From: Candidatus Bathyarchaeota archaeon
Lineage (GTDB): Archaea > Thermoproteota > Bathyarchaeia > Bathyarchaeales > Bathycorpusculaceae
NCBI GenBank assembly: GCA_963768425.1
Contig: CAVYHV010000017.1
Location: forward strand, 225,552-289,551
Direction: 5' to 3'
DNA: 64,000 bases
Below the pieces are notes generated by a model, which was given only the letters and a program-made list of their open reading frames with translations, was not told the DNA's origin and searched no databases. Both the position numbers and the translations under genes were made by a program. Each line of letters starts with the position of its first letter. Position 1 is the first letter of the stretch. Shown here piece by piece: positions 13,223 through 30,448 of the stretch.

Positions 13223-15499
13223 ATGAAAGCAGCAGCCTTTATTTTGACTGTGCTGTTTTTGGTTTGTGCCGTTTTGGGAAGCGCCGCTTCTGCAAGCCAA
13301 CAAAGTCCCATTGCTTGGCCGATGTTTCATGGCGACCTCACCCATTCAGGCAGTTCCAACTCGGCGGCTCCGACGACGAATGCGACTTTGTGGAAATTCA
13401 ATACGGGCGGGCAGGTGGATTCGCCAACGGTTGTCGGCGGAGTAGTTTACGTGGGTTCGTTTGACCATAAAATCTACGCTTTCAACGCGTCAGATGGCTC
13501 AACCATTTGGAGTTACAAAACGGGCGGAGTAGTGATTTCCCGTCCCGCTGTCGTCAACGGCGTCGTCTACGTGGGTTCAGAAGACCACAACCTCTATGCC
13601 CTAAACGCCGCAACAGGCGCAAAACTTTGGAATTACACAACTGGATACTACGTTGACTGCGATCCAGCTGTCGCCAACGGGATAGTTTACTTTGGGTCTG
13701 AAGACCACAACGTCTACGCCCTAAGCGCTGTTACAGGAACATACTTATGGAACTACACAACTGGAAACAAAATTATGTTGTCCTCACCAGCGGTGAGCAA
13801 CGGAATAGTTTACATAGGATCAGAAGATGACAAAATCTACGCCTTGAACGCCTATAACGGCAACTACATATGGAGTTATGCGACAGGCAACCAAGTCGTT
13901 TCTTCACCATCTTTAAGCGGCGGGGCAGTTTACATAGGTTCAGATGACGGCACAGTCTATGCTTTGGACGCGGTTAGCGGCAAACCGATTTGGAAATTTT
14001 CATCTGGTGCGGCAGTCTACTCATCACCTTACGTAAGTAATGGGATAGTTTACGTGGGTTCAACAAACAGCAAAGTGTATGCGCTGAACGCTTTAAACGG
14101 AAAGATTGTTTGGGATTTTATAACGGGCGGTGCAGTTGCTTCTTCCCCAACATGCGTCGGAGGAACTGTTTACGTTGGGTCGGAAGATAGCAGGGTTTAC
14201 GCTTTGAACGCTGCAAACGGAGGATTGCTTTGGAACTACACGACTGGCGACATTGTGATTTCACATCCAGCTTTGGCGCAAGATCTGATTTATGTTGGCG
14301 GATGGGATGGCAAACTTTACGCTTTAAACGCTGCGGACGGCAAACTCGTTTGGAGCTTTGCAACTGGAGGGGAGATCGATTCGTCCCCGACTGTCTCCGG
14401 GGGTTTAGTGTATGTAGGTTCGCATGATGGCTCAGTATACGCTTTGAATGCTTCCACGGGAATGGTTGGTTACAACTTGGAAATGCACAACAACGTTGTC
14501 TGGAGCTACACGACCCAAGGCATGATTCTGTTTTCATCTCCAGCGGTGGCCGACGGCATGGTTTTCGTGGGTTCCTACGATGATAACGTTTATGCATTAA
14601 ACGCTACGACAGGTGCTTTCATTTGGAGCTTCAAAACTGGCGACCCCGTGGTTTCTTCGCCCGCCGTAGAAAAAGGCGTGGTCTACTTTGGCTCAGAAGA
14701 TCACAAAGTCTATGCATTAAATGCTTCTAACGGCTCGTTGGTTTGGCAGTTCGCTACCCTCGGTCAGATAACCGTGTCTTCAGCTGCAATCAACGATGGC
14801 AAAGTTTACATCGGCTCTAACGATGGAAACGTCTACTGTTTGGATGCTTCAAATGGAGCTATAGTCTGGAAATATGCAACTGAGGGATACGTGGTTTCTT
14901 CCCCTGCGATCGCGAATGGTGTGCTTTACGTTGGTTCATACGACAATGAAATTTACGCCCTAAATGCATCAAGCGGGAAGCTTATTTGGAAATACGCCAC
15001 AGGAGGCAGCATTGCATCGTCGCCTGCAATAGCAAACGGCTTAGTCATTGTAGGGTCAGGGGACAACAAGGTTTACGCGCTGGATGCATCCGACGGCAAA
15101 CTCGTCTGGACCTATACAACTGGCGGGCAAGTTGCCTCTTCCCCAGCGGTGTCAAATGGAGTGGTCTACGTTGGCTCCTATGACGGCAATATTTACGCTC
15201 TTAACGCCAAGACAGGCGCATACATTTGGAGCTTTGCAACAGGGGAAATGGTGGTTTCGTCACCCGCCATAGCCGACAACGCGGTTTACGTCGGCTCATA
15301 TAATAACATGCTCTACGCGTTCGGTTCATCATCAACCGGTGCACCAACCAAATCGGAGACCTTGCAGCCAACAATTGTTTTGTTAGTTTTTGTGATAATA
15401 GTGATAATTCTCGCTTTAATCCTGCTGCAGGTAATCGGTCCTTTTAGAAAGAAGAAAAAGCGGCTTATTTTTCGACGAGTTCAGCTTTGGCTATGTTGA
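13223..15499 (+). CDS. PQQ-like beta-propeller repeat surface protein (16 blades, C-terminal TM anchor)
   Basis: 16 copies of an ~40-aa unit WxYxTGxxVxSSPAVxxGxVYVGSxDxxVYALNAxxG; signal peptide; TM + RKKKKR. Confidence 0.9.
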   Translation: MKAAAFILTVLFLVCAVLGSAASASQQSPIAWPMFHGDLTHSGSSNSAAPTTNATLWKFNTGGQVDSPTVVGGVVYVGSFDHKIYAFNASDGSTIWSYKTGGVVISRPAVVNGVVYVGSEDHNLYALNAATGAKLWNYTTGYYVDCDPAVANGIVYFGSEDHNVYALSAVTGTYLWNYTTGNKIMLSSPAVSNGIVYIGSEDDKIYALNAYNGNYIWSYATGNQVVSSPSLSGGAVYIGSDDGTVYALDAVSGKPIWKFSSGAAVYSSPYVSNGIVYVGSTNSKVYALNALNGKIVWDFITGGAVASSPTCVGGTVYVGSEDSRVYALNAANGGLLWNYTTGDIVISHPALAQDLIYVGGWDGKLYALNAADGKLVWSFATGGEIDSSPTVSGGLVYVGSHDGSVYALNASTGMVGYNLEMHNNVVWSYTTQGMILFSSPAVADGMVFVGSYDDNVYALNATTGAFIWSFKTGDPVVSSPAVEKGVVYFGSEDHKVYALNASNGSLVWQFATLGQITVSSAAINDGKVYIGSNDGNVYCLDASNGAIVWKYATEGYVVSSPAIANGVLYVGSYDNEIYALNASSGKLIWKYATGGSIASSPAIANGLVIVGSGDNKVYALDASDGKLVWTYTTGGQVASSPAVSNGVVYVGSYDGNIYALNAKTGAYIWSFATGEMVVSSPAIADNAVYVGSYNNMLYAFGSSSTGAPTKSETLQPTIVLLVFVIIVIILALILLQVIGPFRKKKKRLIFRRVQLWLC

Positions 15500-16648: not shown

Positions 16649-18056
16649 GTGATGAAAACAACTAAAACAAAGATAGCCCTCGTGAACACCCCGCTCCTTG
16701 AAGGAGCCGGCGACCACCCGCTTTTCCCACCTCTTGGCTTAGCATACATGGCGGCTGTGCTGGAACAAAACGGCTTTGAAATAAAAGTTTTCGACTGCCC
16801 CATCTATGGGATAGACCATGAGAAGCTTAAGGCGGAGTTAAGCGTTTTCCAGCCGACCATAGTGGGAGTAGGCGCCATGACGCAAACGTTTGAGTCAGCT
16901 CTAAAGACCGCGTACGCTGCGAAGGAAGCTTGTCCCGACGCCAAAGTAGTGATGGGCGGACCACATGCGACGTTTCAAGACAAAGAAATCCTCTCTCAAG
17001 AAAAAGTAGTCGACATAATCGTGAGAGGCGAAGGCGAAGAAACCCTTCTGGAACTCGCGAAGCAACCTGAACTGCAAAACATCAGCGAGATTAAGGGCGT
17101 AACTTTCCGAAAGGACAACCAGATTGTCCAAACGCCAACCCGACCCTTCATCCAAAACCTAGATGCTCTGCCACGCCCTGCATACAAGCAGATTCCGATC
17201 GAAAAATACCGAATCAACGGAAAAAGGATTCTTCCAGTAATTTCAAGCAGAGGATGCCCATTCCAATGCTCCTTCTGCGTTGCGTCCGAAATGTTCGGTC
17301 GAACGTTCCGCGCAAGAAGCCCAAACAATGTGCTTGACGAGATTGAATGGCTCAAAAACGAGTTTGGAGCGGAAGGAATACAGTTCCAAGATGACACGTT
17401 GACTTTCGACAAGAAAAGAGCCATCGACATCTGCGACGGAATGATTGCAAGAAAAATCAATCTGAAGTGGGGCTGCGGAACCAGAGCGGACGTGACCACC
17501 AAAGAGCTCTTAGCCAAGATGCATAAGGCTGGCTGCGAGGAAATCTGCTTCGGCGTCGAATCGGGATGCCAAAGAATCCGCGACTCTTTGAAGAAGAAGG
17601 TTACGACGGAGCAGTGCGTAAACGCCATCAAATGGGCTAAGGAAGCAGGCATATTCGTTACTGTATCCATTATCTTGGGTTACCCAGGGGAGACAAAGGA
17701 GACGCTCAAGGAAAGCTTGGATTTTGTCCGAAAAGTGGAGCCCGACAGCGTTTGGCTAAACATCCCAACACCTTACCCAGGAACGGAACTACGTGCCCTG
17801 GTGCAGAGTCACGGCTGGAAGATGACGGACGACTGGAACCGATACAACACGATGAACCCCATTTTTGAAGACCCCGACCTGCCATCAGAAGTAGTAACCA
17901 AGGCTAGGCAGGACTTTTACAATCAATTCTATTCAGTAAAGTACTTCATGCGTCAAGCAGTGAAAGGATACCTGCAAAGGCAGCGTATACAGTAAGATCA
18001 TGGCTCGAACCGCAGCAAACTACATTCTTATGAGAACCAAAAGAAGCAAAGTCTAA
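16649..18056 (+). CDS. Cobalamin-binding (class B) radical SAM enzyme; 1-bp insertion near 17975 alters the C-terminus
   Basis: PPLGLAYM, GGPH, SRGCPFQCSFC, GVESG. The shifted frame KGSVYSKIMARTAANY...* (stop 18054-56) matches HSQIMAR in the paralog at 7726. Confidence 0.9.
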
Positions 18057-18186
18057 GGCGCTTGGTAACCAATAGCTTGCCGAATCAAATTGTGCTTTTT
18101 TCGGAGACCTACGGTGCACAAGCACTTTTTACATAACATTTATTATGTTATCGAACCGTTTTAAAGGTAAAATCGAGGGGACTTGG

Positions 18187-19489
18187 ATGTCAAAAGCCGC
18201 TGCGCTTAAAAGTAGCACGTCGGAAGTTTACGATTCACGGGAAAACTGGCCACCTTACACTTACAGAGATTACCCAGGCATTAAACCTGAAATGTACCAC
18301 GCCTTCATGGATTTCCTTAATACTGAGAATAAATCAGGCAGATTGATGGAGTTGCAACCGTGGATCTCTGTCTGCGACTCAAGATGCGCATTTTGTTATT
18401 TTCCAACCACAGCCACGAGCAAGGTGAAGATAGAGCCATATCTTGAACTGCTCAAGAAAGAACTAGAAATGTATGCTAAGACCAAATATGTGAAGACCAG
18501 CGTTTTTGACGAAATAGTTTTAGGTGGCGGAACACCAAGCGTTTTGGCTGCTGAGCAGATGATTGACCTCATCGACTTCTGCAAGGCGAACTTCAACATA
18601 AACAAGGAATATTTCATCAAAGTAACTGGTTCATCAAAGACTCTTGCGCTTCCAAAAATCGAAAAACTCGCCAAATACGGTGTCTACCAAATGGATATGG
18701 GTGCGCAAACATTCGACGACAAACTCCGCAAAATGCTTTGTTTACCCGATTCTGCGGCGGACGTTGAAAAAGCTATTCGGTATGCACGTAAACTGGGCTT
18801 ATGCGTGTGTGCAGATTTAATGTATAATCTTCCGGGACAAACCATGGAAAGTTGGATAGATACCCTGAAGAAAACAATTGAGCTTGATGTGGAAGTTGAT
18901 GCTTACTCGTTGCATGTAGACCCCGGCACGACACTTGAAAAAATGATTAAAACAGGCGTTTCGCCGCCCACAGGAGATGCCGAATATGAGAAGCAAATGT
19001 ATCTAACAGCCTATCAGATGCTTACAGGCGCTGGGTACAAGGCAGTGGGGCACGACCGATACAGCAGAGTAGAGTGGCACATGCGGGAAAACTGCCTGAA
19101 CGGTTGGCCGTGGGGCGGAATTTTGACGACAGGCGCGGGCTGCTTCATGGGATACTTGCAAAAGTTTAGTTACTCTAACATCGAAAACATAAACGATTAC
19201 ATGGCAACGGTCAAAGAGGGAAAACTGCCAATAAGTAGAGTTATCCGAATCCACAAACGAGGACATGATGAGGCGAACGATGACTCGGCTGTACTTACGG
19301 TTACCAGTCAGCAAGAAAGAGTTTATGGAAAAATTCGGAACAACACCTGAAAAAGTCTTCCCGAAACAGCTTCAAAAACTCAAAGACAAGGGACTCATAG
19401 AAATCAACGACAAAGAAATCAGGATAACGAAGTTGGGTGAAATCTGGAAAGGCAACATAGCTTGGGAATTCGCACCTAACCAAACCTGA
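18187..19489 (+). CDS. HemN/HemW-like (class C) radical SAM protein; split by a 1-bp insertion near 19240
   Basis: CDSRCAFC, LGGGTPS, GAQTFDD, DLMYNLPGQT. ORF 19265..19489 is a HemN_C-type tail (KLKDKGLIE...ITKLG). Confidence 0.85.
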
Positions 19490-19848: not shown

Positions 19849-20517
19849 TTATTGATGCCTTACTGGCTGAAGTCCATACCACGACATTACTTTAGCAAGA
19901 ATCGGGATGATTGCTCCTAAAGCAATGTTCGGAATGAATTGCAACACGAAGCCATACAAGCCAGGTACGAGATACGTTGTGGATGCCCACATCTGATGAT
20001 TCATTGTCCGCGCTGGTGAGAGTGAAATAGTGTAGTTGAAGTACGCTTGAATTGAAGCGGTGATGACAGCTGCTGTCATTCCTGCCCCGAGTAACCGCTT
20101 GAAGTTCATGGAGCCGTTAGACAAAGAGCCCGCCATGTAACCGATGATTACAGCCATGACGAGATAAGACAGCATACTCAAGTCGCCGTAGAAGTTGTTA
20201 GCGAAAGAGCTATAGACCGCATAAGATCCGTTAGAATAGCCTGCTTCAGCTAAATAATACATGCCTCCTGTAATGAAGCCAGCCGCGCCGCCTGCCCATT
20301 TGTTCCACAGTAAACCCAATATCATTGGGATACCGAGAATGATCATTTGCGCAAAGCCCTGAGTGAGAATAATGCCGATCGTACTGGATTTTCCGATTAC
20401 GTGTGAAGCTCCGTTGGGGTTAATGTATATTGCCAGAAAATAGATCAAGAATACAAGGATTAGCGGTATCATGATGCCGGTGAATATGTCAGCTAGTTTG
20501 AATCTTGGTGTTTCCAA
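19849..20517 (-). CDS. Membrane protein, ECF S-component-like
   Basis: About 6 TM, 222 aa; IPMILGLLWNKWAGGAAGFITG resembles the S-component AxxxA/G helix region. Confidence 0.55.
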   Translation of the reverse strand: METPRFKLADIFTGIMIPLILVFLIYFLAIYINPNGASHVIGKSSTIGIILTQGFAQMIILGIPMILGLLWNKWAGGAAGFITGGMYYLAEAGYSNGSYAVYSSFANNFYGDLSMLSYLVMAVIIGYMAGSLSNGSMNFKRLLGAGMTAAVITASIQAYFNYTISLSPARTMNHQMWASTTYLVPGLYGFVLQFIPNIALGAIIPILAKVMSWYGLQPVRHQ

Positions 20518-20696: not shown

Positions 20697-22091
20697 TTAT
20701 TGTTGCTGTCTTAGCATTGCTTTTGATCGGAGAACAGCGCCTTTAAGGTCTATTCTTGATGGGCAAACGTAGCTGCAGTGTCCGCATCCAGTGCAATAAT
20801 CCGCATTTAACTTACTCATGGCGTCGAAATTCATCTTGTCAAAGGCCTGCTTAATTAATATTGGGCTTAATCCGTGGCAACAAACTCTCATACACGCGCC
20901 ACATCTCATGCATTGGTATTCTTTGACTTTATCAGGGGTAAATGCTTTGGCTTTAGGCAGTTTAGGCTCTTTAGATTCGGTTGAAGGCTTCCGTCGACCA
21001 ACTTTGTCAAGTGCAGGCACTGTTAAGTTCATTATGACTAGCGCTACGAAAGAGGCTCCGAAGAACTGCATGTACGTAATCATAAGCACTGTTAATATCG
21101 CAGTTCCCACTCCGAAGATTATCTGTCCCATGTATGTTAACGGGGTTGTTGCAGGATCTGTTGCCATAAAGAACGCCAAGAACACTGAACTGCCGATGAA
21201 CATTAAGAACAGAAACCGCACAAGGTAACCTGCACCACCTGAGTCACCATAAACAGCAGAGAAAATCACTGAAAGCACAGCGACAGCGACAAAGTAGCTA
21301 ATGGTAATTCTCCATTTAACGTATCTGCGTGCGACAACAAAGAAGCCTATGCCGACTATGAGAACTGCAATTGTCGATGCTCCACCAGGCCATCCGTGAA
21401 ACTTGTCTAAAAACATTTGCTGAATCAGGCTGTTTATATTTACCGTTGCGAGCTTCGTGATGTTCGAATTAGAGAAACAACTCCACATATATGAGCCGAA
21501 TCCAGGATATCCTGGACCGCCTCCATTGCCGTTTACTACGTTGGTTAACCCTAATGGACCTGCAAGCGAGGGAACTTTCAGTAGACCGCTTTTCATGTGA
21601 TCAATTGCCAATAGCAACGCGTTGATGAATGGTATCATTACAACGATTTTTGCAGCTGCAGCGGGATTAACGTATTTTCTGCCAGTGGTACCGACTAGTT
21701 TCTTGAAGACAATCAAGCCTACTGCGGACATCGCAGCGACAAAGATGAAGCATTGAGGTGCCTCAAGAGGGAACAGCTCAAAACCCACTGTAGTCATACT
21801 TGGGACACCGAGTACATAGCAGTCAGTGACAATTAAACCGAAAACAGCGGCAGACATCAGGTTGAGCGGACTATCCTCAGCAACTGAATGCAGAAAAGCA
21901 TCAAGCCCAACAGCGATACCGACAGCGATTATTGCGTTAATGGCTAATGTGAGACCAAGATTCCATTTCGACGGTGTCGTCTCTTGTGACCAAATAACGG
22001 CCGTTATAACGGTGAGTATTAGCAACGCGAAAAAGGTGTAAGTCATTAGCTTATCTTTAGTCATCCATGAATATTCTTTAGGTTTAGACAT
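20697..22091 (-). CDS. rnfD: RnfD/NqrB-family membrane subunit fused to an RnfC-like 2x[4Fe-4S] domain
   Basis: YVNPAAA, GWPGGAS, FFMATDPATTP, FGVGTAIL (RnfD-like); C-terminal CMRCGACMRVC...GLSP and CTGCGHCSYVCPSRIDL (RnfC-like). Confidence 0.8.
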   Translation of the reverse strand: MSKPKEYSWMTKDKLMTYTFFALLILTVITAVIWSQETTPSKWNLGLTLAINAIIAVGIAVGLDAFLHSVAEDSPLNLMSAAVFGLIVTDCYVLGVPSMTTVGFELFPLEAPQCFIFVAAMSAVGLIVFKKLVGTTGRKYVNPAAAAKIVVMIPFINALLLAIDHMKSGLLKVPSLAGPLGLTNVVNGNGGGPGYPGFGSYMWSCFSNSNITKLATVNINSLIQQMFLDKFHGWPGGASTIAVLIVGIGFFVVARRYVKWRITISYFVAVAVLSVIFSAVYGDSGGAGYLVRFLFLMFIGSSVFLAFFMATDPATTPLTYMGQIIFGVGTAILTVLMITYMQFFGASFVALVIMNLTVPALDKVGRRKPSTESKEPKLPKAKAFTPDKVKEYQCMRCGACMRVCCHGLSPILIKQAFDKMNFDAMSKLNADYCTGCGHCSYVCPSRIDLKGAVLRSKAMLRQQQ

Positions 22092-22360: not shown

Positions 22361-22927
22361 ATGAATAAAGCGGGTAAAGAGGAGTTAGAGGGCATTACTT
22401 TAGACGTTTACTTGCAAGTTTTAAAGATAGGCAAACCCGTCGGACCAAGAGAAGTCATGAAAGCCGCCAACCTCAGCAGCCCAAGCGTGGCGTATAGACA
22501 CCTACAAAAACTCGAAGACTTTGGCTACCTGCAAAAAAACACGTACGGAGAATATATTACAAAAGATAAAGCACACATTTCCGGGTACATTTGGATTAGC
22601 AATCGCTTGATTCCAAAGATGTGGCGGTACTCAATCGTTTTCCTAGCCATTCTCGCCGCTGAAGCAGTGATCTTAGCTGTGCATTACGCCGTTGAAACTT
22701 ACGAATTCAAAGTTTTCTTTCTACTAATAATTCTCATAACTGTGCTAGCTTTCAGCGTTTTCACTATTGAAGGATTTCTTCAAGTTAGACGAACCCACTA
22801 CAGCAAACATGAAAAAACCAGCCCTAAGAACAACTCTGACCCGATAAACGGGAATATGCCCCAAACAATGCATCAGCCAAGTTGCTTTCTGCAATCTATT
22901 TCATTCGAAACAAACATTGTGTTCTAG
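22361..22927 (+). CDS. Membrane-anchored winged-helix protein
   Basis: GPREVMKAANLSSPSVAYRHLQKL HTH followed by two TM helices. Confidence 0.75.
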   Translation: MNKAGKEELEGITLDVYLQVLKIGKPVGPREVMKAANLSSPSVAYRHLQKLEDFGYLQKNTYGEYITKDKAHISGYIWISNRLIPKMWRYSIVFLAILAAEAVILAVHYAVETYEFKVFFLLIILITVLAFSVFTIEGFLQVRRTHYSKHEKTSPKNNSDPINGNMPQTMHQPSCFLQSISFETNIVF

Positions 22928-22974: not shown

Positions 22975-24057
22975 TTGATGGCTTCAAACAAGTCACCACT
23001 ATTCATGGTGGTTTGGCGCTGTACAAGGAACTGTGTCGGCAATTGCATGTACTGTAGCTACACAAAGGATTATGCAGCTGAAACGGAACTGGATACTAAA
23101 GGCGCCAAGAAAATGGTTGACGAAATTCACGATTTTGGTTCGCCCTGGTTCGGAATCAGCGGTGGAGAACCTTTGGTTCGAAACGACGTTTTCGACGTTA
23201 TTGCCTACGCCGAAGAAAAATACGACATGAAAGTCAGCCTTATAACAAGCGGTTTCGCGTGGGATGAAGAACGATTTGACAAACTCAGAAAGTACAATGT
23301 CCACACCGCAATCAGCCTGGATGGAAACAGGGAATCAAACGAAATAATTCGACGAAAAGGCAGCTATGACAAAGCATTACATGCCATGAAAAAGTTATCT
23401 GAAGTTGGATTACTCGATTGCATTGTTACAACCATGACCAAATACAACATTAAACACATGGCGCATCCAGCTGCACTCGCAGAGGAATACAAAGCGCGCA
23501 TGGTAGTTTATCACAATCTAGTTCCCGTTGGGAGAGCAGGAAGTAACATGCCTGACTTAGCACCTACCCCACAACAATACGAGGAAGCTTTTGACGAAAT
23601 TTATGATATTCAACGGAAACTGTATGGCAAAGTTAAGGTCAATGTTTATTCGCCTTTCTATGCAAGGATTGTGCGCCAGAAAAACCCAGTGGACTTCTGG
23701 GACTGGTACCATGAAGGCTACCTTGGCAGATGCACCATCGGCGGTAACTACATTGGCATAACCGAAAACGGCGACTACCGAAGCTGCGGATTCCACGAAG
23801 GCTACCGTTTAGGCAACGTCAAAGACAAGAAATTAACCAAGGTTTGGGATGATCTACAGCACAGTGAATTGCATCTTAAACTGCGGGACAAAAGCAACAT
23901 CAAAGGCCGATGCGGAGTTTGCGAGTACCGAGAAATCTGCGGCGGATGTAGAACTAGAGCCGAATACTACACGGGCGACCTATTTGAGTCAGATCCAGCC
24001 TGCAGTTATATTCCGAAAGTTCTGCGAGAAGATCCCAACTACTTAAAAAAGCAGTAA
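22975..24057 (+). CDS. Radical SAM/SPASM-domain protein, paralog of 12056..13153
   Basis: CVGNCMYC, WFGISGGEPL; CGVCEYREICGGCRTRA...DPAC. Confidence 0.92.
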   Translation: MMASNKSPLFMVVWRCTRNCVGNCMYCSYTKDYAAETELDTKGAKKMVDEIHDFGSPWFGISGGEPLVRNDVFDVIAYAEEKYDMKVSLITSGFAWDEERFDKLRKYNVHTAISLDGNRESNEIIRRKGSYDKALHAMKKLSEVGLLDCIVTTMTKYNIKHMAHPAALAEEYKARMVVYHNLVPVGRAGSNMPDLAPTPQQYEEAFDEIYDIQRKLYGKVKVNVYSPFYARIVRQKNPVDFWDWYHEGYLGRCTIGGNYIGITENGDYRSCGFHEGYRLGNVKDKKLTKVWDDLQHSELHLKLRDKSNIKGRCGVCEYREICGGCRTRAEYYTGDLFESDPACSYIPKVLREDPNYLKKQ

Positions 24058-24241: not shown

Positions 24242-26653
24242 CTATTGTGTTTGGTTGTAGTTATTTAGTATTTTGAAAATAACGTATCGGTCATTTGAGT
24301 AGATTTGCTGGAGAAATTTCAAATGGACTATGTTAGGGTCAAGCTGATTTTTGTCGTAAACTATGAATTCAATGTTGTTCTGGGCTATGTAGTCTTTGTA
24401 GCTACTAGTGTATATTGTGAAGGGGTCAGATTTGAAGCTAAATAGGCTTTCAAGATTGCTGGGCGACAACGCTGTAAAGTTGCTTTTTGAAAGACAGAGA
24501 ATTTGGTATTGCCGGTTAACAATCTGGTCAGTGTTGATTTCACTGAATTGATACTGGTACCTTATTGCATCAATTTGCCCCCCGCCCAGTGCCCCAATGT
24601 TCCCCCAGTCTGGTGGATCGGTGAAGTTGAATGCACAGGCGACTTGGTCTTTGTCGTCATAAACTCCGACGTAGATGTCGGAAGTTGAATTTGGCAAATT
24701 AACTACTGCCCAGAGATTCCCGTCGGTCGTTTTTGAAGTTACATTCCAAGGGCTTACCCAATTCATAATCTGCGGAATTTGAGCCTTGTCGAAATCGAGA
24801 CCAAAGTAGTTGGTAAAGTAGAGCGTTACATTTGAAATATCACCGTTCAAAGGAGTTAAAGCCCAAGAAATGTCGGCCGGGTAAGAATAGTTTTGAACAA
24901 GCATTGTCTCCGTTAAGGCTACATATTCGTTGGAAAACCGAATCTCTAATTGTGTGGGATTAATTTGCTGGTCAAAGTAAATGTCCCGTGTCAAATTGGT
25001 GAAGGGAAAATTGTAATTCTTGCCGTTTTGGGTGAAAGAAATAAAATCCCCTGCGGTGGAGGAAGACAAGACTTGATACCAAATTCCGTTGATGGAAATG
25101 TAGCTTTCGAAGAAAGTATTTCCATAGGCTTCGTAAGCTCGAAACAGGTTCTGAGGGTCCTGAATATCGTATGATAGACTCAAAACTGACCATGCGACGT
25201 CATTTGTCTCCACAGTTGCTGAAGTTTGAGCAATAACATTTTTGCCAGAAAACGCGGAAAACCAAAAACCAGGGATTTCAGTATCAACGACCGTCGCGTT
25301 ATTCGGGTAGTTCTGCTGGAGCCAAATGCCTGCATCAAGTGCTTTCACATCTGTTGTCGAGTAGAAAACGCTCGCCTGTATTATTTTGCCGTAAACCGTG
25401 TCGGAACGAAAAACGAGCACCAAACACATCAACACTATTAAAGAAACCGTTAGAATCTTTAGCCAGTTCCCGCGAACAGAACCAAGAATCGGCTTGCTAA
25501 AGGTCCTTACAAACTTCGCTGAAAAGCCGTTGCCAGCTTTTTGCCCCTTGACTCCAACTACATCAGATTGAGGAATGCCCTGATAAATAGAGAGGCTTTT
25601 GCTGTTCTTCGAGTAGAATATGACAAATTTTTCTTGAATGAAAACTACAGAAACAGCAGCGAAAATAGCCATCGCAGGAGTAAGATAATAAACGAACCAT
25701 TGAAATGGCATGAAAAATCCGAAAAGGTAGGACTCAGCGAAAAAAAGTGGAACAAAGAAACTGATCATCAATATTGCATAGGAAAAAAGTTTTTTTTCTT
25801 TTCTCAGGAGAAAGAAGGAAATGACAATGCCGCCTATGGCAAAAAAGAAAATGAAGCCGAAATTAACCATAAACGCCTTAAAGCTGACAGAGGGAATCTG
25901 GAAAGCGTAGGTTTTTACGGCAAAAAACACGTATTCAATGACAAGCCCAATGTAACCGAACACAGCTTTAAAATAATAGAGAAAAGCTATTCCGCCGCCC
26001 ACAATCAAGGCTAATACAACTTTAAGGGAGGCCCCTCTTGAGTTTATCAGCATATAAATTAGAATTGGAGGCAACATAAATGCCGCGAGGAAAGCGGCAA
26101 GCTGATGGGACAAAACTAGTGCGAAAGCCGCAAGAAAAGTAACCACAAGGTAACCGAACTCCCCTGTGGCTTTAGTTAAGTAAAGAAGCATAAAAAGAAT
26201 AAAGGCTATGCCAAGTACTGTGGTGTAGCCGCCAAACTGATTAGCTTCAAAAACAGGAAAACACATCAAAAGTAAAACGGCTCCTACAGCTCCGACTTTC
26301 TTACCAAAAAACTTGCTACCAATCAGATAAACAGCCATGAAAAGTAGCCAATCAGCCACTGCTGCAAGAGCTTTAACCAAGAAAATCATCTGCCCGATGC
26401 CAGCTGCACCAGTGAAAGAAATAAGCATGGAAAGCAGAAGCTCGTAAAGCGGAGGCGTCCAACCTAAGTTTTCTAAGGGTATTCTACCTGTATTTAGAAA
26501 AATCTGTGCTTTCACAAGATGAACAGCAGGGTCATTTCCGAGTACTACCCCGTTCATTGATACAACAGTGTAGAAGATGAGTAAAACAAGCACAGAGAAA
26601 ATTGTTATGAAGGCAACTTCAAGCTGTTTCTCATTTGCCATTTTACCCATCAA
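24242..26653 (-). CDS. Large polytopic membrane protein, GT-C glycosyltransferase-like, with extracellular C-terminal domain
   Basis: GNDPAVH in the first loop, W/YxP motif, about 11-12 TM, soluble domain with many N-glycosylation sequons. Confidence 0.65.
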   Translation of the reverse strand: MMGKMANEKQLEVAFITIFSVLVLLIFYTVVSMNGVVLGNDPAVHLVKAQIFLNTGRIPLENLGWTPPLYELLLSMLISFTGAAGIGQMIFLVKALAAVADWLLFMAVYLIGSKFFGKKVGAVGAVLLLMCFPVFEANQFGGYTTVLGIAFILFMLLYLTKATGEFGYLVVTFLAAFALVLSHQLAAFLAAFMLPPILIYMLINSRGASLKVVLALIVGGGIAFLYYFKAVFGYIGLVIEYVFFAVKTYAFQIPSVSFKAFMVNFGFIFFFAIGGIVISFFLLRKEKKLFSYAILMISFFVPLFFAESYLFGFFMPFQWFVYYLTPAMAIFAAVSVVFIQEKFVIFYSKNSKSLSIYQGIPQSDVVGVKGQKAGNGFSAKFVRTFSKPILGSVRGNWLKILTVSLIVLMCLVLVFRSDTVYGKIIQASVFYSTTDVKALDAGIWLQQNYPNNATVVDTEIPGFWFSAFSGKNVIAQTSATVETNDVAWSVLSLSYDIQDPQNLFRAYEAYGNTFFESYISINGIWYQVLSSSTAGDFISFTQNGKNYNFPFTNLTRDIYFDQQINPTQLEIRFSNEYVALTETMLVQNYSYPADISWALTPLNGDISNVTLYFTNYFGLDFDKAQIPQIMNWVSPWNVTSKTTDGNLWAVVNLPNSTSDIYVGVYDDKDQVACAFNFTDPPDWGNIGALGGGQIDAIRYQYQFSEINTDQIVNRQYQILCLSKSNFTALSPSNLESLFSFKSDPFTIYTSSYKDYIAQNNIEFIVYDKNQLDPNIVHLKFLQQIYSNDRYVIFKILNNYNQTQ

Positions 26654-26661
26654 GAAGCCAG

Positions 26662-28971
26662 TTATCCTCCATTCTGATTGACGTTCGTCCTGACTTTAAA
26701 GATGGCAACTTCATTGTTAATAAATACCAAGCTAAATTCTGGGTCGTCAGCAAATTTTGTGTTCACCCCAAAATCACGGTTTGCAATGTAAGAAACCGAG
26801 TTTGCTTGCAACTCCGCTTTATAATCAAATGTAGTTAAGGGCAAACTCACATCTGGTTTTTGCGCGTTTTGAGCGTCAGAAATTAATGTTTGGTTCAAGC
26901 TATTTGTGTTTAATATCTCATTTTCCGTAACTGGGTAAATGCCTACAAAAATTTGTATTTCTGCAGAGGACTTGCCTTGTAAGTTGTAAGAAAGCTGGGT
27001 TATGCAGGGATTTTGTGAGTTAAACGCCTTCACTTGTGGCTGATTTTCCTCAAAAACAAGTTGGCCGACCTCTTTCAGACCAGTATCTAACATTGCTACA
27101 GTGTTATTGGACGGCTGCAAGAATTGACCTTGGGCATTTATTATGAAATTGATCCAGTCTAAAGAAACGTTCTGATTGATGCTCTGAAGTACTATAGTCA
27201 TGTTTGCGAATGCCACCCCTTGAGAGACAGTTAAAATTTCGGAGTAACTGAAGTCATTGTTTGCTTTGTCTACGATAATGGATGGGCTGTTGCTTTGTGC
27301 ACCATCTAGCTGCATATTGACTACCGGCATTTGCGTTACGTCAGTGGACTGCCTGGATCCAACGCTCTGTGAGAGCAAAGTAATCTCACTGTTGTTGAAC
27401 TGGAAGAAAGGAACGGGAAAAGGTGTCCAGCTAAGGTCGGCGAGAAATTCAGGGTTATGTCTTCCGATGTACCCGCCGTCTTCTCGGACCTGAATGTAGC
27501 CGTTATCGATCATGTAATCAGTATCAAGCAGATTAGAAGCAAAAGTTGCTGGCGCTAACTCACTGTCAACCGTTAAGTATTGCGGTTGAACCGCGCTCAA
27601 GGTAGGCCGTTGTGCAAAACCGCCAAGCCACCATCCGTAAAGAGCGTCAGAAACAAAAACTGACCCGGGTGCAGTGTTTTGCTCAGCCCAGTGAATTGCT
27701 TGGTATCCGGGTTTGTCCATAGTTTGGTAGAAGCTTTGAATAGTCACGCCTTGCCAAGGAGTGAGAAAGATAGGAAGGGTAACGAGAAAGATAAGTATGA
27801 AGCCTAACGTGAAGATGGAGTAAACTCTCTTGTGGGTTATGACAGCGGAGATTCTGGTAGCCCACTTGTCTGCGGTCCTCGTTGTTTTCTGCATTTGGCG
27901 TGTCAGGTTGTGGTAAGGGACTGTTAGGTGTGCAAAATAGGTTGAACCGTGATCAATCATCATGGCGAAAAGTATGATAACGGGTAAAACCAGGAAATAG
28001 AGAAAACGATTGTAATCGACTAAAAGCCCGAACAAGTAGCCTTGTGTCAGGATCAGCGGAACGAAAAGCCACATTATTACCAGGAAAGTTGGAAGCGAAA
28101 TGAATCGGCGTTTATATTTTTTAGATAATAGAAGCAGTGGGAGAAGGCAGGCGAAGAGCGCTAAGACTTCATCCATAGGAAGCACTCTTGTCGCAATTAT
28201 CGCTTGATCAATAGCGCTAACAGCGGAAAACGACGAGTTAGCGCTCAAGTAAGCAGGAACCGCCTTTACAAGAAACGGTGAAACAAGAATTGCGCCTCCT
28301 ACCAGTGGAAGTAACCAACTTAGAACGTTTTTTCGTGTTGTTCCGAACGTTCTAGGCGCTACAAGCGCAAAAAACACAGTGGCGGCTGTTATTCCTAAGA
28401 AAACGGCAGCGCTTAACGAATGAGTCAAGAATATGGATCCGACCAAGATTGAACCCGAAACAAGAAAAGGACTCATCGAAAACCTTTCTCTTCGAAGAAA
28501 CAGGTAAAAAGTCAAAGGAATTAAAAGCAGTGTTATCACGTTGGGGTAGCCCGCCCACATCAACATTTCGATATCAAAACGTGAAACTGCGACTAAAAAC
28601 GCAACAATAAAAGCTGCTGACTCAGACCATACTGTTCTAGTTATCAAAAAAGCGGCTAAAACAATAAGGGAAGAAAATAGTGCAACAATTAGAGCCTGTG
28701 CCACATAGTCTGTTAAGCCCGTCATGAGCATTACGGCTGAAGCAAAAATGTGGTACCCCGGAAAGGTTAAGGATTGGCCTCCACCCATCTGGAAGTAGTC
28801 GTAGAGGAAATTGGTATTGCCTGAACCCGTTATAGAGTTGATGACGCTTGCGTGTAACCCTATGTCAGCGCCAGGCGGGAACCCTTGCCAAAACATTAGA
28901 ACGATACGGTAAATAAAAGAGAAAACGAAAATCAAAAGCAGCAGAACATATTTCTTGTTTGCATTGAACAC
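26662..28971 (-). CDS. GT-C glycosyltransferase-like membrane protein, paralog of 24242..26653
   Basis: GADIGLH, FPGYH, THSLS, RFLYF, AIHWAEQN; same architecture as the adjacent gene. Confidence 0.65.
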   Translation of the reverse strand: MFNANKKYVLLLLIFVFSFIYRIVLMFWQGFPPGADIGLHASVINSITGSGNTNFLYDYFQMGGGQSLTFPGYHIFASAVMLMTGLTDYVAQALIVALFSSLIVLAAFLITRTVWSESAAFIVAFLVAVSRFDIEMLMWAGYPNVITLLLIPLTFYLFLRRERFSMSPFLVSGSILVGSIFLTHSLSAAVFLGITAATVFFALVAPRTFGTTRKNVLSWLLPLVGGAILVSPFLVKAVPAYLSANSSFSAVSAIDQAIIATRVLPMDEVLALFACLLPLLLLSKKYKRRFISLPTFLVIMWLFVPLILTQGYLFGLLVDYNRFLYFLVLPVIILFAMMIDHGSTYFAHLTVPYHNLTRQMQKTTRTADKWATRISAVITHKRVYSIFTLGFILIFLVTLPIFLTPWQGVTIQSFYQTMDKPGYQAIHWAEQNTAPGSVFVSDALYGWWLGGFAQRPTLSAVQPQYLTVDSELAPATFASNLLDTDYMIDNGYIQVREDGGYIGRHNPEFLADLSWTPFPVPFFQFNNSEITLLSQSVGSRQSTDVTQMPVVNMQLDGAQSNSPSIIVDKANNDFSYSEILTVSQGVAFANMTIVLQSINQNVSLDWINFIINAQGQFLQPSNNTVAMLDTGLKEVGQLVFEENQPQVKAFNSQNPCITQLSYNLQGKSSAEIQIFVGIYPVTENEILNTNSLNQTLISDAQNAQKPDVSLPLTTFDYKAELQANSVSYIANRDFGVNTKFADDPEFSLVFINNEVAIFKVRTNVNQNGG

Positions 28972-29089: not shown

Positions 29090-29518
29090 ATGTCGTGGCT
29101 TAAATCTATGATGGAAAAAGAGCCTCCAGAACCAGAGAATCCAATCGGCATAGTCGTTATAGGCAATATTGAACCGGACATGCATGACACAGCAAAAGAA
29201 GCAGTTAGGCGATCACTAAAACGCGCTGGATTCAAAACAATCGACGTAGGAAAAAGCGTTGCTCCACAAGTTTTCGTTGACAAGGCAAAAGAGAACAATG
29301 CGAACTTGATTGCTATTTCAGTGAACACTGTTCCAGCAAAGAACAATCTTGCAAAACTTGATGAAGCATTGAAGGCAGCTGGCCTCAAAGGAAAAATCGC
29401 CATAATAATGGGCGGTGCTGCAGTCAAGAAAGAAGACGCTGACGCTATGGGTGCACTCTTCGGCAAAAACAAAGAAGAAGCTCCTGAACTTGCAAAGAAA
29501 GCAATAGGCAAAAAATAG
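29090..29518 (+). CDS. Corrinoid (B12-binding) protein, stand-alone Rossmann domain
   Basis: EPDMHDTAK (variant of DxHxxG), AGFKTIDVG, IIMGGAAV. Confidence 0.88.
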   Translation: MSWLKSMMEKEPPEPENPIGIVVIGNIEPDMHDTAKEAVRRSLKRAGFKTIDVGKSVAPQVFVDKAKENNANLIAISVNTVPAKNNLAKLDEALKAAGLKGKIAIIMGGAAVKKEDADAMGALFGKNKEEAPELAKKAIGKK

Positions 29519-29536
29519 TCCTTCAGATGAGGAAAA

Positions 29537-30448
29537 ATGTCCTTTAAATTCAACACGAAACAAAATATTTACACGGTTGGAAAAGCTAAAGTAGGCGGTC
29601 AGCCAGGAGAACTACCGACTTTTCTGATTGGTTCCATCTTTTGGCTCGGCCAGAAAATGGTTCAAGACGCAAACAAGGGTATTTTTGATGCAAAGGCAGC
29701 AGAAGACATAATCAACACTATGCAGACGCAAAGCGACATTACTGGTGTACAGTTCGCTTTTGACATTGTAGGAACTACTGATATGGCCTTTGAAAAATAC
29801 ATCGATTTCGTTGCAAAACACAGCGACGCACCTCTTATGCTCGATGCTATGAGCCCAAAGACACGTATGACGGCAGCTACTATCGCAAAGAAGATGGGCC
29901 TTGCAGACCGGTGTCTCTACAACTCAGTCTACAAAGGTGTGACTGATGCGGAACTGGCGAATTTGAAAGAAAGCGGCGTCAAAATGTCTATAGTGCTTGC
30001 TGATGACCCTAAAGATACCACAATGGAAGGTAAAATGAAGGTCATCCAGGAAGCATTAGCGTTGGCAGAAAAAGGCGGAATCACTAAGCCTTTGATTGAC
30101 ACGGCTATTCCCGCCTTCGCTCCAGACATGGGTACTGCGGTTAGAACAATACCGATCATGAAAGAGAAGTACGGTCACCCAGTAGGCTTAGGCAGCGGAA
30201 ACGTTGTCACAACCATGGGTTGGGTTAAAGCAAACGTCGCGAAAGAATTCCGCCCCGGGTGCAGAACCTCAACCAACTCTATCATGCAGACAGTAGGCGC
30301 TAACTGGCTTATGATTGGACCCGCAGAGCAAGCAGAATGGATTTTCCCCGCCGTTGCAATAACTGACACATACATTGCTTCAGCCGCAGGCGACCTTGGA
30401 ACTAGACCAATAGACGAGACTCATCCAATCTACAAAATGTTCATGTAG
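29537..30448 (+). CDS. mtrH: Tetrahydromethanopterin S-methyltransferase subunit H-like (MtrH/MtxH/MtgA family)
   Basis: VGGQPGELPTFLIGSIF, YNSV, KPLIDTA, KYGHPVG, HPIYKMF. Confidence 0.9.
   Translation: MSFKFNTKQNIYTVGKAKVGGQPGELPTFLIGSIFWLGQKMVQDANKGIFDAKAAEDIINTMQTQSDITGVQFAFDIVGTTDMAFEKYIDFVAKHSDAPLMLDAMSPKTRMTAATIAKKMGLADRCLYNSVYKGVTDAELANLKESGVKMSIVLADDPKDTTMEGKMKVIQEALALAEKGGITKPLIDTAIPAFAPDMGTAVRTIPIMKEKYGHPVGLGSGNVVTTMGWVKANVAKEFRPGCRTSTNSIMQTVGANWLMIGPAEQAEWIFPAVAITDTYIASAAGDLGTRPIDETHPIYKMFM

Follow-up and report, generated by a model that had tools for sequence, protein, structure and literature searches.

The stretch of DNA analyzed here, hereafter the window, spans 64,000 nucleotides of contig CAVYHV010000017.1 (positions 225,552 to 289,551, forward strand) from a Candidatus Bathyarchaeota archaeon (assembly GCA_963768425.1). 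A gene within the window encodes a protein of 464 amino acids in which an RnfD-like membrane domain and an RnfC-type ferredoxin domain are joined in a single chain, and in which the threonine that carries flavin mononucleotide (FMN) in canonical RnfD is replaced. The gene and the residues discussed below are as follows, with positions counted from the first letter of the window.

20697..22091 (-): RnfD-like membrane domain and RnfC-type 2[4Fe-4S] ferredoxin domain in a single chain; 464 residues, one uninterrupted open reading frame
20988..22091 (-): membrane body (residues 1-368), with ten hydrophobic segments and the fold of RnfD/NqrB
20913..20987 (-): Lys/Pro-rich linker, about residues 365-393, recognized from the sequence
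20697..20912 (-): RnfC-type ferredoxin domain; eight cluster cysteines and an extra invariant Cys405
21666..21668 (-): Asn142, equivalent to Asn124 in the riboflavin site of Clostridium tetanomorphum RnfD
21597..21599 (-): His165, invariant within the clade; canonical RnfD shows no conservation here
21552..21572 (-): degenerate flavinylation site P174-S-L-A-G178-P-L, with Gly replacing the FMN-carrying Thr, located by multiple alignment
21390..21398 (-): His232-Gly-Trp234 motif, within the FMN-covering loop of C. tetanomorphum RnfD; the Glu185 equivalent is Gly237
21156..21158 (-): Asp312, equivalent to Asp248 in the riboflavin site of C. tetanomorphum RnfD

The original prediction, made from the sequence alone, had described an RnfD/NqrB-like body followed by a Lys/Pro linker and an RnfC-like Fe-S domain, and the open reading frame, the domain scan and the predicted fold all agree with that description. 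Specifically, the Pfam profile PF03116 (NQR2_RnfD_RnfE) matches residues 12-368 with 116.9 bits (E 1.5e-33), while Fer4 and dicluster ferredoxin domains match residues 389-446, the C-terminus matching Fer4 only, and the motif CxxCxxCxxxC occurs twice in the tail that follows the linker. The top NCBIfam models are rnfD (residues 41-366) and rnfC (residues 388-464), both far under their cut-offs; the rnfD model TIGR01946, for example, scores 70.8, below its curated cut-off of 207. Similarly, in a search of PDB sequences all chains returned for the body were RnfD/NqrB, and all those for the tail were RnfC. An AlphaFold2 model of the whole protein, built on a 56-row alignment with a mean predicted local distance difference test (pLDDT) score of 71, resembles RnfD (8ahx_D, Z 25.3, root-mean-square deviation (rmsd) 3.7 over 295 aligned residues; 7zc6_D, Z 22.9) as well as NqrB (7xk3_B, Z 23.9).

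That the fusion is genuine, and not an artefact of assembly, follows from the presence of both Cys motifs in 119 of the 120 best homologues and from a metatranscriptome contig that covers 20697-22080 in one unbroken piece at about 96% identity. The latter is an assembled contig, which documents that the sequence occurs in an RNA library and carries no information on strand or level, with DNA carry-over possible; the concern that the fusion might disappear on re-sequencing is nevertheless not borne out, as the contig spans the junction. A scan for bacterial-type promoters gave matches below chance and was uninformative.

Flavin sites and the search for Rnf partners

Absence of the FMN-attachment Thr, which the original prediction had put forward as apparent, was assessed by multiple alignment with eight annotated RnfD/NqrB sequences and 41 representative hits of ordinary length (49 in all, assumed to be canonical with their operons unchecked). 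In this alignment P174-S-L-A-G178-P-L falls on the canonical V-[ST]-x-A-T-P-L motif with Gly178 at the Thr, which upholds the prediction. Thr stands immediately before the conserved Pro in 40 of the 49 canonical-type sequences; in the 120 best homologues (all hits, no motif filter) that position is Gly in 114, Ala in 4 and Thr in 2. Loss of the Thr is not family-wide: it is retained in 10 of the 176 rows of a wider, motif-filtered and partly redundant set, mostly within one nested subclade that reads T-L-A-T, and no ApbE match was found in G175, a genome from that subclade. Two other locations for the Thr were considered and rejected. A pairwise HMMER alignment with 8ahx_D shifts the register by about 18 residues to G194-Y-P-G-F-G, which is also Thr-less, and a loose motif scan of the linker matched 4 of the 176 rows, every one in a variable stretch.

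The riboflavin site is retained. Residue equivalences with C. tetanomorphum were derived from a HMMER alignment and residue roles from PMC9588780, which, like the other publications cited here, is represented by excerpts. In the Rnf complex of that organism riboflavin lies 11.7 Å from the RnfC cluster and 7.7 Å from FMN, and is flanked by Asn124 and Asp248 (PMC9588780). The equivalents N142 and D312, together with the gate Phe (F308, equivalent to Phe244), are kept in 120 of 120 homologues. On the FMN side, Thr153 has become Gly, Glu185 has become G237 (119/120), Gly237 has become S/A301 and Arg130 has become K148. H165, H232 and W234 are invariant (120/120), C205 is present in 119, and H232 and W234 sit on loop 175-187, which in the solved structure extends to the FMN ring. 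Both His residues and the Trp are likewise invariant in 45 of 45 distant, outer-clade relatives, in which the flavinylation motif is absent, while the extended motif HGWxGG occurs in 0 of the 49 canonical-type sequences. A metagenome scan seeded with the HGW motif is uninformative as to the motif's frequency.

Invariance of these residues invites the alternative that His165 and His232 bind heme or a metal ion in place of FMN, or that the body serves as a redox-gated channel akin to Amt or urea transporters. Conservation of both His residues across the Bathyarchaeia-type and outer-clade sets and of Cys205 in the former would suit such a role, as would the hemA and siroheme-synthesis genes that adjoin four outer-clade loci (see below) and the relatedness of the modeled fold to ammonium and urea transporters (Z 12-14). 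A siroheme decarboxylase (PF17805) was not found in the genome, however, and the gate Phe is kept; we regard this alternative as improbable.

The original prediction had noted that no other rnf genes lie nearby, and a genome-wide search extends that absence. No match to PF02508 (RnfA/E), PF04205 (RnfG-type FMN_bind) or PF02424 (ApbE) was found in the genome itself, which is 91% complete, and a tblastn search with the full RnfC of a relative returned ferredoxin-domain matches only. Among 301 genomes of the class, PF03116 occurs in 35, namely this genome and 34 others, restricted to two families; PF02508, PF04205 and PF02424 are found in 0 of the 34 other carriers, with positive controls detected. 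A complete rnf operon elsewhere was accordingly sought and not found in any of them. These results agree with an earlier report, in the excerpted text, that no Rnf complex was found in Bathy-6 (PMC7886697). They also bear on the possibility that the protein is an ordinary divergent RnfD of a complete Rnf with missed partner genes, or else a decaying remnant. The incompleteness of the genome and the automatic naming of the protein as RnfD would permit the former, but the partners are lacking in all 34 other carriers, one of which (G090) is a single-contig genome, and decay is at odds with strong conservation and with presence in an RNA library; either version is very improbable indeed.

The wider clade and its redox modules

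In a quick tree of membrane domains (92 rows), the Thr-less RnfD proteins form one separate, long-branch clade with a support of 100. A HMMER search of 1.84 billion representatives showed the family to be sharply bounded, with 48 matches at E up to 1e-30, many of them fragments, and pointed the way to an outer clade. Among the named members of the outer clade are Thorarchaeota, Promethearchaeia, Thermoplasmata and a Bacillota bacterium. Separate descent, a retained riboflavin site and the absence of RnfA/E, RnfG and ApbE from the 34 other carriers are in keeping with the "minimal, repurposed membrane redox module" that had been proposed.

Within Bathyarchaeia the same locus takes several forms: the ferredoxin fusion, a longer version with FrhB domains appended (seen in 10 of the 120 best homologues), and a bare RnfD with a full RnfC encoded separately after it (in 8 of the 34 other carriers). 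One genome, G038, carries bare, ferredoxin and FrhB forms together. In a tree of the 70-residue ferredoxin domain, the 14 domains linked to FrhB all fall into a single clade (0.989), whereas the membrane domains of the FrhB forms are scattered in the membrane-domain tree, and because of this discordance the simplest reading of the two trees points to cassette exchange; convergence at a shared interface may instead account for the pattern. An ancestral status for RnfD with full RnfC in Bathyarchaeia was considered and rejected, since the corresponding rows of the membrane-domain tree fall within the fused forms, and their RnfC is placed separately from that of the outer clade. On the same grounds, the full RnfC of the Bathyarchaeia form looks re-acquired. 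One further paralogue, on contig C14, had been taken for a ferredoxin-FrhB protein and is actually a stand-alone ferredoxin of 89 residues (L001:7865-8134, reverse strand), 56% identical to the fused domain, with homologues P0171 and P0175; its gene lies between rps19e and a polyprenyl synthase gene.

From metagenomes, 79 loci of the clade were collected, many of them short and probably from related organisms. No RnfA/E match was found within these loci. An RnfC N-terminal region is encoded in 48 of the 79, typically in the next gene; these 48 loci (within L111-L181) are two-gene rnfD-rnfC operons without rnfA, rnfE or rnfG, on contigs of Asgard, Thermoplasmata and bacterial type. Tandem duplicates of rnfC occur in L130, L132, L154 and L160. 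At L128, L130, L132 and L154 the operon lies in divergent orientation to hemA and genes of siroheme synthesis, and three of the four loci have a radical SAM gene farther along. In L157, L159, L167, L186 and L180 the operon is succeeded by a gene for an FMN_bind protein, and in L169 such a gene stands immediately after an RnfD-ferredoxin fusion.

In 12 of the 79 loci (L152, L153, L156-L159, L161, L164-L167 and L186; see also protein P0163) the membrane domain is fused to a molybdopterin domain of the FdhF type, with NuoE/F/G-like genes coming after it in most, and the NuoG-like subunit terminates in an RnfC-like ferredoxin in all nine loci that have that subunit. An FMN-binding protein is encoded in four of these loci and is multi-domain in three. 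The FdhF-fused RnfD is apparently an undescribed membrane-anchored formate dehydrogenase with an extracellular outlet, possibly bifurcating. Taken together, the data on gene fusions and neighbors suggest, at the level of sequence, that the same membrane unit is served by exchangeable donor modules (ferredoxin, FrhB, RnfC and formate dehydrogenase type), for which inputs of the NADH, F420 or formate type are predicted.

The co-inherited gene cluster in Bathyarchaeia

In the window and its Bathyarchaeia counterparts the fusion gene is embedded in a conserved cluster, the members of which are listed here.

13223..15499 (+): PQQ_2-type beta-propeller protein with an N-terminal hydrophobic leader, frequent in the cluster
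16649..17995 (+): B12-binding radical SAM enzyme; one-base discrepancy near 17976
18145..19350 (+): co-inherited HemN-like radical SAM enzyme, its C-terminus probably truncated by an assembly error of one base at 19240
19849..20517 (-): membrane protein of 222 residues with a predicted energy-coupling factor (ECF) S-component fold, directly downstream of the fusion gene on the same strand
22361..22927 (+): divergent helix-turn-helix protein; two hydrophobic stretches in its C-terminal part
22975..24057 (+): radical SAM/SPASM enzyme, part of the conserved cluster
24242..28971 (-): two paralogous multi-pass membrane proteins of 770-800 residues, no Pfam family, co-inherited
29090..30448 (+): corrinoid protein (142 residues, B12-binding domain only) and MtrH/MtgA-like methyltransferase

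Relative to contigs from other runs, the window contains one extra base each at 17976 and 19240, which probably shorten the B12 radical SAM protein (448 residues against about 465) and the HemN-like protein (401 against about 433). Among 43 rows (42 loci and the window), the SPASM radical SAM gene is present in 37, the B12 radical SAM gene in 31, the genes for the 222-residue protein and the HemN-like enzyme in 29 each, those for the large membrane proteins in 28, PQQ_2 propellers in 27 and the MtrH-like gene in 25. Across the 301 genomes the HemN-like gene occurs in 38, all 35 carriers among them, and the large membrane protein in 38, covering 34 of the 35 carriers. A search of PDB sequences with the large membrane protein gave no match; the two paralogues may be GT-C-like. 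Four contigs titled as bacterial bins (L009, L017, L033 and L044) hold high-identity parts of the Bathyarchaeia cluster and are probably mis-binned. The conserved genes around MtgA-MtgC in Bathy-6 have been described, and the excerpted main text of that account never mentions Rnf, although its supplementary neighborhood figure may show the gene (PMC11697101).

Inheritance of these genes as a block raises the possibility that the protein is a reductase for a membrane-bound intermediate. Specifically, the radical SAM and B12 enzymes and the large membrane proteins would make a lipid-linked or cell-surface product, an intermediate of which would be presented by the S-component-like protein and reduced by the RnfD-ferredoxin protein in the old FMN pocket. 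Conservation of seven gene families, each in 25 to 37 of the 43 rows, and the near-complete overlap of the HemN-like and large membrane protein genes with the carriers favor this idea, but outside Bathyarchaeia the clade lacks the cluster, and the S-like gene is matched in only 1 of the 79 metagenome loci, itself of Bathyarchaeia type. The reductase is possible, if not probable.

PQQ_2 domains are matched 4-47 times per genome in the 34 other carriers and 0-6 times in 18 genomes of the same families without the cluster, 13 of which have none. The cluster-less genomes are smaller, related genomes do not count as independent, G014, which lacks the module, has 12 matches, and the Methanosarcina precedent for pyrroloquinoline quinone-type proteins and humic matter is reportedly disputed (PMC10945356); the counts therefore serve as a lead only.

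The gene for the 222-residue membrane protein is found in 35 of the 35 carriers, and in two further genomes that have weak paralogues, and lies directly downstream in 29 of the 35. In structural comparisons of its model (pLDDT 77), nine of the ten best matches are titled ECF transporter or S-component chains and the tenth is BtuM; the modeled protein resembles S-components at Z 10-11 and rmsd 3-5.5, RibU (5kbw) at Z 10.8, and gave an Atlas lead of 0.87. No ECF T or A genes are found in the cluster, and one CbiQ-type gene that exceeds the cut-off is located on this contig at a distance of about 59 kb. At L092, L027 and L028 the S-like and B12 radical SAM genes stand beside genes of the cobamide-completion type (CbiB-like), to which L092 adds genes that we presume to be CobS- and CobT-like; a cobamide link for the ligand of the S-like protein is possible. 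Paralogues also occur in clusters of the arsenic-resistance type that include DUF169 (L084-L086 and L093-L110), with an ArsC-like gene in 7 and an ArsM-like gene in 5 of 21 loci; these names, and the Acr3-like label used below, are assumed for matches to SBF, LMWPc and methyltransferase families. Such paralogues are possibly an arsenic-handling membrane protein.

Lumazine synthase was found neither in the genome nor in 52 relatives, with or without the module. These Bathyarchaeia therefore appear, from gene content, to be riboflavin auxotrophs, and flavin would need to be scavenged. In Listeria, EetB is an S-component-like flavin exporter that serves extracellular electron transfer (PMC9973259).

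A candidate electron conduit and its relation to known systems

As to function, we consider it about an even chance that the fusion reproduces the RnfD-RnfC contact of Rnf in one chain and works alone as an outward, non-pumping electron conduit. Under this proposal electrons would pass from a cytoplasmic carrier to the two predicted [4Fe-4S] clusters of the ferredoxin domain, thence to a predicted non-covalent riboflavin inside the membrane, and finally to an acceptor entering the vacated FMN pocket from outside. The ferredoxin-to-riboflavin step of Rnf would be kept and the riboflavin-to-FMN step removed; riboflavin and cluster binding are presumed on the basis of Rnf structures. With the wire ending at riboflavin, something would have to enter the empty pocket. 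The acceptor would probably be free flavin or a similar small cofactor, handled by the S-component-like neighbor, with which the RnfD-ferredoxin protein may be in contact; His165, His232 and Trp234 may help to hold it. The fusion in this genome carries no donor domain, so that a separate ferredoxin or dehydrogenase would have to supply the electrons. In the bacterial-type loci, a flavinylated FMN-binding neighbor is a candidate to fill the pocket, as proposed for Nqr/Rnf-like complexes. An outward direction is suggested by the donor-type modules and by the FMN-binding proteins beside bacterial-type relatives, and a non-covalent cofactor is favored in Bathyarchaeia because they lack FMN_bind and ApbE and possess an S-like gene that recalls EetB. 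The best reading is thus a riboflavin-only transmembrane conduit, akin in principle to bacterial Nqr/Rnf-like systems and operating without flavinylation.

Several observations weigh against such a conduit. Firstly, direction is its weakest step: all of the donor modules are reversible, and forward Rnf sends electrons from RnfD riboflavin to RnfC, that is, inward (PMC12174285, PMC9588780). Secondly, FMN_bind neighbors occur in only 6 of the 79 metagenome loci, or 7 with L158, where the gene lies about 4 kb upstream; these loci are bacterial-type and perhaps non-independent, the Bathyarchaeia count is 0 of 34, and no conserved acceptor gene was found across the 48 RnfD-RnfC loci. Thirdly, the outer clade has Glu at the riboflavin Asp position, and the structural model is weak across the linker and ferredoxin domain (pLDDT about 40-60). 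Additionally, the structural match of the S-like protein, at Z about 11, is only moderate by the standards of helical bundles and silent on ligand identity, and the 222-residue protein matches no known S-component sequence profile. Its paralogues adjoin ArsR in 16, a small ferredoxin in 16 and an Acr3-like gene in 13 of 21 loci, a context as compatible with a metalloid or some other ligand as with flavin, and genomes without the module likewise lack lumazine synthase.

The reverse arrangement, an inward conduit from the membrane through riboflavin and the ferredoxin domain to NAD+, F420 or the neighboring radical SAM and corrinoid proteins, would match the forward direction of Rnf, and the form that ends in ferredoxin alone lacks a donor site. 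The lack of a RACo activator in the genome and the joint inheritance with radical SAM genes also speak for it. No external low-potential donor and no ion-coupling RnfAE/G were found, however, and radical SAM clusters and Co(I), which require about -450 mV or lower, need potentials below those of the NAD-level clusters expected for RnfC. Inward flow is unlikely. The suggestion in the original prediction, that low-potential electrons feed the adjacent radical SAM or corrinoid proteins, is possible but gains no support here: without RnfAE/G no known route would make such electrons, and outside Bathyarchaeia the clade lacks that cluster and is coupled to RnfC or formate dehydrogenase modules and, at some loci, to an FMN-binding protein.

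A broader and more tentative extension of the outward conduit, which we think rather unlikely to hold in full, is that RnfD of this clade and an RnfC-type ferredoxin constitute a widespread, undescribed two-part respiratory wire with plug-in NADH, F420H2 and formate inputs, which in Bathy-6 would have given up covalent flavinylation entirely and be connected to the exterior by a diffusible or His-held cofactor. In Bathy-6-type archaea this cofactor would be delivered by the S-component-like protein, possibly made or attached by the radical SAM cluster, and would take electrons to surface beta-propeller proteins or humic matter. If true, these archaea would have in the wire their missing terminal outlet for electrons, and the FrhB form would link F420H2 directly to the cell exterior. 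The carriers are sediment and peat dwellers, and a genome study of Bathy-6 could not, in the portion excerpted, name the terminal acceptor or terminal electron-transfer machinery (PMC11697101). The 464-residue single-chain protein offers a concrete, expressible candidate for that machinery.

Comparison with known systems reveals both similarities and differences. The protein shares with the RnfD-RnfC interface of Rnf (7zc6 from C. tetanomorphum, 8ahx from A. vinelandii and 9eri from A. woodii) the RnfD fold, the riboflavin-site Asn and Asp, the gate Phe and an RnfC-type 2[4Fe-4S] domain. It differs from Rnf in its D-then-ferredoxin fusion, absence of the RnfC NAD/FMN domains and of the FMN-Thr, new His/Trp motif and long-branch position, and in that RnfA/E, RnfG and ApbE were not found in its genome or the 34 other carriers. 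Bacterial Nqr/Rnf-like complexes also lose the Thr, and one-way electron export has been proposed for them (PMC8238504, PMC10979944). As in these two-subunit systems, a Thr-less RnfD-like membrane domain is fused to a cytoplasmic redox domain, but theirs is an NAD-binding PF00175 domain accompanied by an ApbE-flavinylated RnfG-like partner, while the fusion has an RnfC-type ferredoxin or ferredoxin-FrhB; Bathyarchaeia carriers lack FMN_bind and ApbE, FMN_bind standing beside some bacterial-type members of the clade. NqrB of the Na+-translocating complex shares the fold (Z 23.9), and its riboflavin can hand electrons straight to a membrane acceptor (PMC12174285), but it has covalent FMN, N-terminal quinone-binding helices and a place in a six-subunit pump, against the short N-terminus and fused ferredoxin described here. 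The predicted fold of the 222-residue neighbor may be the six-helix fold of S-components such as EetB and RibU, with no sequence-level match and no ECF T or A in the cluster. The RnfD-ferredoxin protein belongs neither to Rnf, for which the Thr, the partner subunits and ApbE fail, nor to the Nqr/Rnf-like family as defined, for which PF00175 and an FMN_bind partner are lacking, though its mode of action is probably similar to that of the Nqr/Rnf-like systems.

Both Rnf and Nqr are regarded as pumps of six subunits, and a conserved clade that keeps the RnfD-ferredoxin contact alone, with exchangeable donor modules, represents a natural dissection of the machine, in which the roles of riboflavin and RnfD can be studied when FMN, RnfG and RnfAE are absent. 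It likewise bears on the question of an ion channel within RnfD, which is disputed (PMC12174285, PMC9588780). A literature search that covered few subscription papers found no description of the fusion or of the Thr-less clade. Annotation as RnfD in Bathyarchaeia, Asgard archaea and Thermoplasmata does not imply Rnf-based energy conservation. Isolated RnfD hits have been recorded, without explanation in the excerpted text, in 3 of 19 Bathyarchaeia genomes, along with stray RnfC hits (PMC9534799).

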